Virus record (IMG/VR): IMGVR_UViG_3300012348_000120
Length of the DNA stretch: 64,000 bases
DNA from: a virus
Taxonomy: Duplodnaviria; Heunggongvirae; Uroviricota; Caudoviricetes
Strand: one strand, 5' to 3'
Shown: positions 59,629 through 61,925 of the stretch, piece by piece
How positions within the stretch are numbered: the first letter of the stretch is position 1
How the letters are laid out: each line of letters starts with the position of its first letter
Position numbers and translations under genes: made by a program
The notes under the pieces: generated by a model
The model's database searches: none
Told to the model about the DNA's origin: nothing
What the model saw: only the letters and a program-made list of their open reading frames with translations

Positions 59629-60324
59629 TTACGGGCTTTCACTCCCTGCATTCTTTTCTTTTGTCCACTGAACTATTAGATTTAAGTCTTTACCAGCAAG
59701 GGAATCTCTATTCAACTCATTTGACTGAGTGAGGGAAATCGGGCTTAAATCCTCATTGAAAAAGTGTTTACTCGTTACTTTAATCCACTCATTGAAATCT
59801 TCATCGTTTTCATAAACAATCTTGTTATGAGAAAACTTTTTGCTGAACATACTTTGAACTGGTTCGTATCTGAACATACCCAACAAGACTTTTGCTTGAT
59901 TGATTGCGTGTTCTTGTCTTCCATATCTTTCACCATATACTGAATAGTATGACCGTCCAGCATCGGCGTAAGTTACATATTTCTTTTTTATTAACTCAGG
60001 TATTGACAGATTATACCAAAACTGTTCAATCTTGTCAAATCTCTTTCTTTGTAGAAATGCTAACGCAATCGTCAACGATCTATATTCAAACGCATGATAG
60101 TGAAGTTTGTTATCCGCATAAGCAGCTACACCTTCGTGTCTTATACCTAACTTAGCAAGATAATGACCGCTCTTGTTTTCGCTTCCAAGTTTGTGTCCAT
60201 ATTCACGTTGGTATTTGTGTCCAGTTTTGTAGTAGCCACTTCTATCTTTTTTGAGTTCTTTGATTGTCTTTCGCAAGAACTCTTTACGGTGTTGCAGTTT
60301 GATTTTGAGTTCATTCGTGTTCAT
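59629..60324 (-). CDS. hypothetical protein
   Basis: 231 aa, ATGA-coupled to the upstream ORF. Confidence 0.7.
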   Translation of the reverse strand: MNTNELKIKLQHRKEFLRKTIKELKKDRSGYYKTGHKYQREYGHKLGSENKSGHYLAKLGIRHEGVAAYADNKLHYHAFEYRSLTIALAFLQRKRFDKIEQFWYNLSIPELIKKKYVTYADAGRSYYSVYGERYGRQEHAINQAKVLLGMFRYEPVQSMFSKKFSHNKIVYENDEDFNEWIKVTSKHFFNEDLSPISLTQSNELNRDSLAGKDLNLIVQWTKEKNAGSESP

Positions 60325-60581
60325 TTATCTTCTCCATTTTGAATCAAAGCCTCATTGGACTCCGTAATACTAAAGTAACAGTTCTTGATTTTAATCGCAC
60401 CTTTTGTGTGTGGATTATCAGGAGTTTCTTTAGTAGACCACCCTACTTCTGATATGACATGATCAACGTAAAAGGTTTGTCCTTTTGTTTTGATCACCCA
60501 CATTGGAATATTGGGGTCTTCAAGATGTTTCTTATTGAAGTGAAACACTAATTCGCTGACTTTGGTTTTTTCAATCTACAT
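60321..60581 (-). CDS. hypothetical protein with an in-frame UAG at codon 2
   Basis: AAAGGA SD then ATG TAG ATT GAA AAA..., in frame with the FHFNKKHLEDP...TKETPDNPHTKG ORF (track start 60548). Confidence 0.65.
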
Positions 60582-60690
60582 AGTTTATCCTTTCTGATTG
60601 AGTAGGTTACTGACGATCTAAATGGGTATTGGCATAGCCGCAGGGTTTCAGGTTCCTACTCGCTACTACAAACCCTTTTTCGCTTTATTT

Positions 60691-60767
60691 TGGTGGCCCT
60701 AGTGGGACTCGAACCCACGACCAATAGTTTTAGGGACTGCCGCTCTAACCAACTGAGCTACAGGGCC
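60691..60767 (-). tRNA. tRNA with CUA anticodon (putative amber suppressor)
   Basis: GGCCCTG acceptor, canonical D and T arms, loop CC-CTA-AA, ACCA end. Confidence 0.8.
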
Positions 60768-60784: not shown

Positions 60785-61054
60785 TTACCCTATCGTTGCT
60801 CGGTATTCATTATGGTAAGTAACGAAATCCCAAGCTATTGTCGGAAGCGTTTGACCTCCACGGTTTTCATTTGAATACCACCTCGCATTACTTCGCGGTG
60901 TTACTACCACACTCAGAGGATACATTGATTTCAAGTCCCATACGACCACAATAGAGGCTCTTGCGAGTAGTCTACCGTCTAACCATATAGTGTTCTGCGC
61001 GTCTTTCCAATCCAACCAAGATAAACCCCGTTGGCGGTAGGAACTCAATGTATC
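60785..61054 (-). ncRNA. unclassified structured RNA
   Basis: Long-range stems GATACATTGA/TCAATGTATC and GGTATTCA/TGAATACC; GCAA tetraloop. Confidence 0.45.
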
Positions 61055-61079
61055 GTCAAAATGTGATTTCATTTTGTCA

Positions 61080-61925
61080 AGGCTGAGATTATACCTTGAG
61101 GTGAGTGCCTTCGGTCATTACCCAATCCCTTGCGAGGATGGTTCTACCTTTATCCACAAGAGTCGTTTCCGATCATCTTGTATCACTCAATGCGGCCTTT
61201 TTTGGAGAGTGGCATTTCTCTCGTCGCATACTGCTATTCATCCTTCCATCTTCCGTCAGCCTTGCGGGCTGTTCAAGGTCGCTAAACCCTTACGTCTTCT
61301 GTCGGAATAATCACGTCCACCTTGCGAGTTTCAGTGAACCATATTCTCTTGCGAGTATGGTATTACGCATCTTTCACAGTATACCGAGGCAGTCTTTCGC
61401 TTTTGTTTCAATAGCAGGAGTTGAACCCGCATTCGATCTCTTAGAAGGAGATTGCTTTACCATTAAGCAATATTGCGAACCTACTTCGATGTGCTGCCTC
61501 AGTTGCACCATACCTTGTTAGATACAGTATACAACACACCGACTGTCTTTTGCCTTGCGGGCTACTCAACGTCTTTTCAAGTATCCGGGGCCTAACCCTT
61601 CCACTCTCAAGATGCCATCATGCCTTTCCTTGCAGGGTCAGACTCTATGGCTACCTGTTGACCTTCAGTATTCGTTAGTTTGGCTGAAAACTGTTCGGAC
61701 GCCAATCCTCTTACCACTCACCGACTGGCTCTGTGGCTATCCTTTCAGACAGTTCTCCTAACTTACTACCTACCGCCTCTCTACAGACGGGACTTGCTTT
61801 CGGTTTAATCCGAGTCAAGTCTGGTTCAGGCTTGTATAGATGGACCATCGCTGGCGCAAGTTTATAGGAAACCTTGCTTTGGGTGCATTACTGCACTTAC
61901 CCTTATGGACGCTATACCGCCCAAT
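61080..61925 (-). ncRNA. GOLLD-like large structured RNA
   Basis: About 840 nt without a credible ORF, six GCAA-tetraloop hairpins, embedded tRNA-like element, own promoter, inside a phage tRNA cluster. Confidence 0.6.
61407..61477 (-). pseudogene. tRNA-Arg(UCU)-like element inside the large RNA
   Basis: D arm, anticodon arm CT-TCT-AA and T arm GGTTCAACT; only 5 acceptor pairs and no CCA. Confidence 0.7.

Follow-up and report, generated by a model that had tools for sequence, protein, structure and literature searches.

The window, that is, the whole 64,000-nt stretch of IMG/VR record IMGVR_UViG_3300012348_000120 that was analysed, encodes on its minus strand a tRNA with a CUA anticodon and, downstream of it, a small gene (gene X) whose second codon is an in-frame TAG. 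The features at this locus are:

60691-60767, minus strand: tRNA gene with CUA anticodon, predicted amber suppressor (ARAGORN, Rfam, sequence)
60600-60682, minus strand: structured RNA motif of about 83 nt in the spacer (folding, pattern searches, covariation)
60588-60593, minus strand: Shine-Dalgarno (SD)-like AAAGGA (sequence, anti-SD duplex energy)
60579-60581, minus strand: ATG, likely true start of gene X (sequence, relatives, SD comparison)
60576-60578, minus strand: in-frame TAG, codon 2 of gene X and the putative gate, next letter A (sequence, contigs)
60321-60581, minus strand: gene X, 86 aa given UAG readthrough (ORF, homologues, predicted all-beta fold)

The AAAGGA (60593-60588) is separated by 6 nt from the ATG (60581), which itself lies 109 nt from the tRNA, close to the 110 nt given in the original prediction of an SD-led ATG-TAG downstream of a tRNA(CUA). 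Past the TAG the frame continues to a TGA at 60321, giving 86 aa, and is shared, as had been claimed, with a GTG at 60548; the anti-SD duplex energy is -5.4 kcal/mol at the ATG versus -0.5 at this GTG. The TAG had been taken as genuine, and contigs from six of eight runs (X3, X4, X5, X7, X15 and X19; assembled contigs, not raw reads) bear this out, with no alternative letter at the ATG, the TAG or C33 of the tRNA, and with many silent differences at other positions. X16 and X17 lack coverage of the TAG. The gene X start and the tRNA recur unchanged in three IMG/VR contigs from a relative with 93% identity. The RNA contigs X15 and X19 span the tRNA and the start of X; we discounted them as transcript evidence, as contigs cannot show a transcript.

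Sixteen tRNA genes were detected by ARAGORN on the minus strand of the window, one of them CUA. The tRNA is also recognised by Rfam (60.6 bits). Its loop (C32-C33-CUA-A37-A38), C28.A42 mismatch and A73, all described originally, are present in the sequence, together with G1-C72 and an encoded CCA; of the Ile2/Lys-like body described originally, the check covered A73. ARAGORN labels it tRNA-Pyl, a class with a 6-bp anticodon stem, a 3-nt variable loop and no TPsiC. This label was rejected on structure, the window tRNA being a canonical cloverleaf with a 5-bp anticodon stem, a 5-nt variable region and a TTCGA T-loop.

Further RNA features lie upstream. A GOLLD RNA (61080-61542, minus strand, 194.9 bits with Rfam) is located 310 nt upstream of the CUA tRNA, contains a tRNA-Arg(TCT)-like element (61405-61477) and lies in a region covered by contigs in all four RNA runs. 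The 290 nt between it and the CUA tRNA (60785-61072, minus strand) look noncoding and structured, with several GCAA/GNRA-type hairpins by eye; Rfam gives nothing there beyond a weak YrlA score. On the other side, a gene for a 231-aa protein (59629-60324, minus strand) overlaps the stop of X (ATGA) and has its own SD-like GGAG; this protein and three neighbours matched no family in Pfam or PHROGs. It had been suggested that this gene is coupled to X and perhaps under the same control. It follows X only in close relatives of the window and in L060/L061, where a 28% homologue lies 130 nt past X, and judged by this distribution it is not a conserved part of the gate.

The family of X comprises 469 members of about its own length and at least 1105 longer proteins. 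Viral-contig loci were collected by single-sequence search (47) and by alignment (the best 80 of 425, hence the sample leans to close relatives), and with six genome contigs, three cultured phages and the window these gave 137 loci, comprising 86 distinct cores in 45 clusters at 85% identity. A gene was counted as gated if an ATG was followed by a TAG within seven codons and then by the conserved protein, provided that no further ATG lay well upstream of the core. An early TAG (codon 2-7) was present in 68 of the 86 distinct homologues and in 29 of the 45 clusters, and TAA or TGA in none; the background, 774 other long open stretches of the same loci, gave 21 TAG, 37 TAA and 19 TGA. ATG, TAG and core share one frame in all 68, by construction of the count, as they do in the window. 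The distance from TAG to core takes six different values and in L044/L045 the TAG lies 11 codons inside the conserved core, hence selection on the stop is for being early and not for one position.

Several observations suggest that translation of X passes through this stop. The SD is stronger at the ATG preceding the TAG than at the next in-frame start in 54 of the 68 genes (median -5.6 versus -1.0 kcal/mol). That next start lies inside the core in 27, with a GTG, ATG or TTG one to three codons ahead of the core in the other 41. From the TAG to the next possible start the residues are conserved while their codons vary synonymously, and in the homologue alignment that the original prediction had called for they resemble the N-termini of ungated homologues. 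In the structural model of X (pLDDT 92), residues 4-14 past the stop form a single strand, strand 1 (pLDDT 91), and this strand would be truncated if translation began at GTG 60548.

Among the 18 homologues not counted as gated, 11 are near a Pth2-like gene that itself has an early TAG and often overlaps the start of X. The remainder comprise one with an inner TAG only, one with a TAG and then its own ATG, that of phage Atu_ph07, one that is cut, and three unexplained cases (L055, L092 and L127) for which no gate could be placed. Some database X proteins show Gln at the TAG position, probably because a gene caller translated TAG as Gln: the codon at the Gln of protein P0003 is a TAG in locus L268. 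In L046 and L047 the X homologue has an apparent frameshift near its TKETPD motif, which may be an assembly error or decay.

The co-occurrence of the TAG with a tRNA(CUA) in related phages, which the original prediction had proposed as a check, was found widely. ARAGORN places a CUA tRNA on the same strand within 3.3 kb of 64 of the 86 distinct X genes, the next commonest anticodon reaching 25, and in 18 of the 38 loci of at least 15 kb it is the sole tRNA. Seven further loci gain a CUA tRNA through a loop pattern with Rfam (four flanking, three elsewhere in the contig), the phage Phosso adds another, and two more were found by loop pattern alone. No CUA tRNA was detected in five partial contigs of 150-250 kb with a gated X (G002, G004, G015, G016 and G017). 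X stays beside the CUA tRNA even where X is ungated.

These tRNAs are unusual in the anticodon arm. The 65 distinct CUA tRNAs have G1-C72 or G1-U72 and a short variable arm, with A73 in 54, and E. coli identity rules would suggest Lys or Gln as the inserted residue. An anticodon-stem mismatch is present in 46 of the 65, compared with 83 of 445 other tRNAs in the neighbourhood. C33 occurs in one and is peculiar to the window lineage; positions 31-39 are paired in this lineage and unpaired in 28 others. The letter after the TAG is A in 58 of the 68 gated X genes and a purine in 66, and A in this position is a context favouring suppression. Position 27-43 is unpaired in 24 of the 65 tRNAs, a state reported to raise UAG readthrough (PMC13092985).

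The gate sits in genomes that use the standard code. The claim that the genome is not globally recoded held up, with 0.91 of the window covered by crude ORF tiling under table 11. Window ORFs of at least 100 aa end in TAA (29), TGA (19) or TAG (5 of 53), and those of at least 150 aa in G001, a close relative (203-kb contig, 56% complete), in TAA (81), TGA (60) or TAG (13 of 154). TAG ends real genes in both, and TGA is the second commonest stop across the X loci. Gene X is the sole window ORF with an ATG just before an upstream TAG, and among nine SD-ATG-early-stop candidates in G001 only X looks like a real gene. The release-factor domain PF00472 was absent from all five records searched, including the 56%-complete G001. 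We rejected identity as a TAG-recoded (code 15) phage, with which the CUA tRNA is shared, because long ORFs are intact under table 11 and one gene is gated.

Pth2-like genes carry the same arrangement. A search using the best 80 of 299 loci, four of them without a usable anchor, yielded 56 distinct genes, of which 54 had an early TAG, one a TAG followed by an ATG and one a TAA; an inner TAG was present in just one of the 56. A CUA tRNA lies within 5 kb of 47 of the 54 TAG-gated genes, and X is absent within 5 kb at 30 of these 54 loci. None of seven canonical phage Pth2 genes checked had an early stop. Four of five neighbours scored above the curated cut-off of the PTH2 profile (PF01981) and one below it (E 0.0097). 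The catalytic residues of Pth2 are Lys, Asp and Thr. In the main gated group Asp and Thr are invariant and an invariant Gln of the first helix stands where the catalytic Lys is expected, hence this group may lack hydrolase activity. For the window phage we found no Pth2-like gene with a gate, and in its close relative, whose record is 56% complete, the Pth2-like gene has no early TAG. The latter gene (L177, G001) and its counterpart L176 (G002) are divergent and both end in TAG, readthrough of which would append a few residues.

Two exchanges of the stop codon were found, both in Pth2-like genes and not in X. In Phosso the Pth2 gene carries its TAG at codon 4, with a CUA tRNA lying 4.5 kb upstream. 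The Pth2 gene of Atu_ph07, 73% identical to that of Phosso, has a TGA at codon 7, and among the 31 tRNAs of this phage CUA is absent and a tRNA(UCA) is present, about 230 kb from the TGA-gated gene. G024 (98% complete; L333), the one TAA case, has its stop at codon 5 of the Pth2-like gene and a tRNA(UUA) (68 bits) at a distance of 19 kb; a pattern search for a CUA tRNA found none there. Comparison of these genomes thus shows stop codon and anticodon changing together, in two single events that are both in the predicted direction. Nine of ten long ORFs around the gated gene of G024 end in TAA, hence its ochre-reading tRNA can hardly be efficient. No cognate tRNA was found in G025 (97%) or G026 (100%), where the Pth2-like gene is TAG-gated; these may be detection failures, since the CUA tRNA of G027 is so degenerate that default ARAGORN missed it. 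Odd RNAs were also noted, namely a freshwater-2 motif (L229, 1619-1699) and a permuted tmRNA (L218, 177-645), each adjoining a degenerate CUA tRNA, and three Atu_ph07 tRNA genes (L138, L169, L171) with anticodon-loop inserts of 26-48 nt.

The arrangement is also present in cultured phages. In RHph_I1_18, X is unannotated, has a TAG after its start and is followed 10 nt past its stop by a gene annotated as 'tRNA-Pyl'. In phage pT24 a Pth2-like gene is TAG-gated and CUA is the anticodon of one of just four tRNA genes; this phage also carries a near-identical pair of tRNA-Ile(TAT) genes with an odd anticodon arm (L202, 733-812 and 1100-1179). In XacN1 ORF364 and Xoo-sp13 ORF327 an ATG and TAG lie directly upstream of the annotated start, the XacN1 ATG being SD-led with its TAG at codon 3. 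The C-terminal part of ORF364 is Pth2-like, and the N-terminal part of both proteins is, by motif, what we take to be a candidate HD-like domain. An in-frame ATG follows within five codons of the TAG in these two phages and in L120 and L365. The pre-TAG start codon of IkeLoa and Myrna lies 6-7 nt past a promoter shape (TTGACA/TAnnnT), so that the mRNA may be leaderless and open with a start and a stop; GTG directly follows the TAG, and a tRNA centred on CUA lies downstream, annotated as Pyl in IkeLoa and as Ser in Myrna, the CUA reading for Myrna being ours. The annotated start is misplaced in Phosso, pT24, XacN1, IkeLoa and Myrna. RsoM2USA has a CUA tRNA (L207, 55762-55790) and an ungated Pth2 gene. 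X of Phosso and Atu_ph07 (L049, L050) has a helical protein as an N-terminal fusion, and in L108 this helical protein is encoded by a separate gene just before X. The authors describing XacN1 tested readthrough at 18 gene ends and left its CUA tRNAs without a target (PMC5852040).

The spacer had originally been described as structured, with a possible pseudoknot. Its stem GAGTAGG/CCTACTC (60661-60655 with 60606-60600) was supported by covariation across 13 distinct full copies among 29 sequences examined, nine of which had no full match; the search patterns fixed the AGGGTTT/AAACCCT letters. Every copy has an outer stem of 6-7 bp differing in sequence and an inner hairpin of 3-9 bp, and outer stems pair better with their own partner than when crossed (median -11.9 versus -4.9 kcal/mol). 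The outer stem crosses the 5' pairing, which makes a pseudoknot plausible. The motif had no Rfam family at E up to 1. Further loci are:

L238, L246, L248 and L261-L279: spacer motif (pattern searches)

These copies adjoin various tRNAs and unrelated genes and precede X in only two lineages, a distribution by which the spacer is a separate mobile RNA and no required part of the gate. A switch occluding the SD was rejected, as 6 nt separate the outer stem from the SD and the motif is found in just two X lineages; the minimum free energy fold pairs the SD-ATG region of X weakly, in a separate hairpin. A processing or self-cleaving role, making the motif a candidate new ribozyme, is speculation. 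Theta ribozymes are likewise small structured RNAs 3' of a tRNA(CUA) (PMC10879173); the spacer motif differs in starting about 8 nt past the CCA and in belonging to a phage that is not recoded. By eye, its stem order does not appear to fit the HDV-like pattern.

Protein X shows 55-70% identity across phages around the motif FHFNK..H ... W ... TKETPDN..TKG, with invariant His, Asn, Lys, Thr and Trp and many invariant basic or polar residues, and this conservation suggests a conserved target. The predicted structure is all-beta. X has no family in Pfam or PHROGs and no PDB match, Foldseek against PDB returned nothing at E 0.001, and the ESM Atlas held no usable match; BFVD matched only phage domains of no characterised function, in some cases fused to DUF2061 or an APS kinase. 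Several identities were tried and rejected. Long forms of X gave only scattered weak Pfam and PHROGs matches, such as WW and 2CompART; PDB sequence matches to WW domains were weak and spanned 18 residues; and VIA-align reached a best Z of 3.5, with several ADP-ribosyltransferase folds at Z about 3 that were discounted. The long forms carry an extra C-terminal domain, which matches ACT/RRM-like folds (an arrangement that is common; Z up to 6.1) instead of half a Pth2 fold. A GGQ-like loop (GxCG) in the long forms does not fit a release factor. A predicted complex of RF1, the Pth2-like protein and X scored 0.15, below the mark of 0.32, and was counted neither for nor against an interaction. Neighbours of X include Pth2-like, CCA-adding-like and RNA ligase genes, from which we infer a role for X in tRNA or ribosome upkeep.

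Across these genomes, comparison establishes the conserved early stop, its linkage to the tRNA, its movement between genes of an operon, two swaps and the standard code. The pairing recurs in dozens of phages and stop and anticodon change together, hence the tRNA is likely the key for the gated gene and very probably gates its translation by reading the early UAG. Our best explanation of what the gate does is that the CUA tRNA would read the codon-2 UAG of X in competition with host release factor 1, as a partial suppressor that usually loses. X would be made mainly at low termination capacity, its output following the suppressor-to-release-factor ratio, and the gate would sense a shortage of termination in the way of the internal prfB stop. 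The proteins turned on would form a kit for cleaning up translation, consisting in many relatives of a Pth2-like peptidyl-tRNA hydrolase with X as a likely accessory acting on tRNA or the ribosome. Hydrolysis by Pth2 off the ribosome equals what a release factor does on it (PMC7824862), and the Pth2-like protein, the commonest identified target, would by this chemistry close a negative feedback loop like that of prfB. An ochre reader in a genome rich in TAA ends must as a rule lose to the release factor, and the sensing step is also favoured by the anticodon-stem mismatches of the CUA tRNAs and by the lack of a release-factor domain in the five records searched; the weak-suppressor step is weakened, however, by the unpaired 27-43 and the A after the TAG, which argue for an efficient suppressor. 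Taken in full, including the sensing of termination shortage, we consider this explanation possible and only a little short of probable.

The main rival to a sensor of release-factor capacity is a switch of timing or maturation, in which the tRNA would suppress efficiently once transcribed, trimmed and charged, thereby delaying X and the Pth2-like protein, for example if these are harmful early. The original prediction took this form; its local tRNA-gated X is strongly supported by our comparisons, while its reading in terms of maturation and charging time is one of several and not the preferred one. All of the evidence linking tRNA and stop fits it, as do the purine after the TAG in 66 of 68 genes and the 27-43 unpinning reported to aid readthrough (PMC13092985), and the same logic was proposed for late genes of recoded phages (bioRxiv 10.1101/2021.08.26.457843, PMC10879173). 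An efficient ochre suppressor is hard to square with the TAA-rich gene ends of G024, however, the gate in pT24 with its four tRNA genes cannot report a replacement tRNA pool, and a promoter would presumably time one operon more cheaply. We regard such a switch as rather unlikely, if the strongest of the alternatives.

Alternatively, the tRNA would serve mainly to corrupt termination of host genes ending in UAG, and the gate would dose the Pth2-like protein and X to the damage done by suppression. Interference with host expression has been raised as a possibility (PMC8386662), the phage genes avoid TAG ends (13 of 154 in G001, 5 of 53 in the window) and ungated X still adjoins the tRNA. UAA and UGA versions would, however, harm the phage's own genes, and frequent co-transcription of tRNA and target would already couple the two. 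This feed-forward reading is improbable in our view.

Less probable again is that the UAG ends a frame of one to six codons and X is made from a downstream start, with the tRNA modulating re-initiation or drop-off. Possible starts one to three codons ahead of the core in 41 of 68 genes, the GTG right after the TAG in IkeLoa and Myrna, and the ATG soon after it in XacN1, Xoo-sp13, L120 and L365 are consistent with re-initiation, and Pth is the enzyme that recycles dropped-off peptidyl-tRNA. Against this, 27 of the 68 genes have their next start within the core, the segment following the TAG shows protein-level conservation and a predicted structural strand, and the TAG of L044/L045 is 11 codons into the core.

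It is very unlikely that X sets its own level by binding, modifying or cutting tRNA(CUA) or by inhibiting RF1, an idea partly compatible with our best explanation. X remains linked to the tRNA when ungated, has many invariant basic or polar residues and in its long forms an ACT/RRM-like domain; no fold or family match indicates such an activity, however, and X must be unnecessary for the gate at the 30 of 54 gated Pth2-like loci that lack it within 5 kb. An artefact, pseudogene or genome-wide TAG recoding, to which the Gln in some database proteins might point, is refuted by conservation to the point of being negligible, as the TAG recurs in independent assemblies and in 29 of 45 clusters, the Gln is probably a gene-caller reading, long ORFs are intact under table 11 and an inner TAG occurs in 1 of 56 Pth2-like genes. 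Four-base decoding of UAG-A was ruled out because the frame is kept.

The termination sensor that we prefer has partial parallels in known systems. Closest as a working analogy is prfB (RF2), which has an early in-frame stop and a bypass competing with the release factor (PMC12421855), as is predicted for the gate; there the bypass is a programmed frameshift and the product is the release factor itself, whereas here the frame is kept and a dedicated tRNA is the predicted bypass. The bldA tRNA and TTA genes of Streptomyces share a dispensable tRNA gating a gene set through a rare codon (PMC2000904), but the bldA tRNA is a host product that decodes a sense codon in many targets, whereas here a stop codon is read and tRNA and target travel together in phages. 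Code-15 phages likewise have a suppressor tRNA and stops proposed to time translation, with stops throughout many structural and lysis genes and, in some, phage release factors (bioRxiv 10.1101/2021.08.26.457843); the phages here use the standard code and one near-start stop in one or two translation-related genes, in UAG, UGA and UAA versions. The gate would work in the manner of bldA gating and of prfB autoregulation but belongs to neither class, and its phages fall outside the code-15 group. The orphan CUA suppressor tRNAs of XacN1 (PMC5852040) are of the same kind, and ORF364, read from upstream of its annotated start, is a candidate target. Jumbo-phage Pth2 in tRNA-repair kits shares the proposed recycling of peptidyl-tRNA, with neither an internal stop nor a suppressor tRNA mentioned in the accessible text of that study (PMC7824862).

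In the mostly open-access literature searched, no description of early-stop gating of Pth2-like proteins or X by a phage suppressor tRNA was found; the arrangement is real and widespread and apparently new to the literature. Suppressor tRNAs in non-recoded phages are an open puzzle, and Borges et al. read them as a step towards recoding (bioRxiv 10.1101/2021.08.26.457843). The present work names targets, which were hidden by annotation where the gene is missing or its start misplaced, and makes the question testable in cultured phages of harmless hosts. A little more tentatively, standard-code phages of several bacterial phyla may carry a portable release-factor sensor, in which a deliberately imperfect suppressor tRNA and one early stop (UAG, or else UGA or UAA paired with its own anticodon) would turn on Pth2-like, HD-like and X rescue proteins only when host termination or tRNA recycling fails, for example under a ribosome-jamming anti-phage defence. 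If true, the orphan 'tRNA-Pyl/Sup' genes found in jumbo phages and in cluster C mycobacteriophages would have an explanation. If release-factor shortage is what is sensed, the gate would constitute a new type of phage sensor, one that monitors the state of host translation, and would point to defences acting on termination. The arrangement offers natural predicted suppressor tRNAs for three stop codons, a conserved protein family (X) without a known fold, and a route by which a phage may keep a suppressor tRNA ahead of genome-wide recoding.
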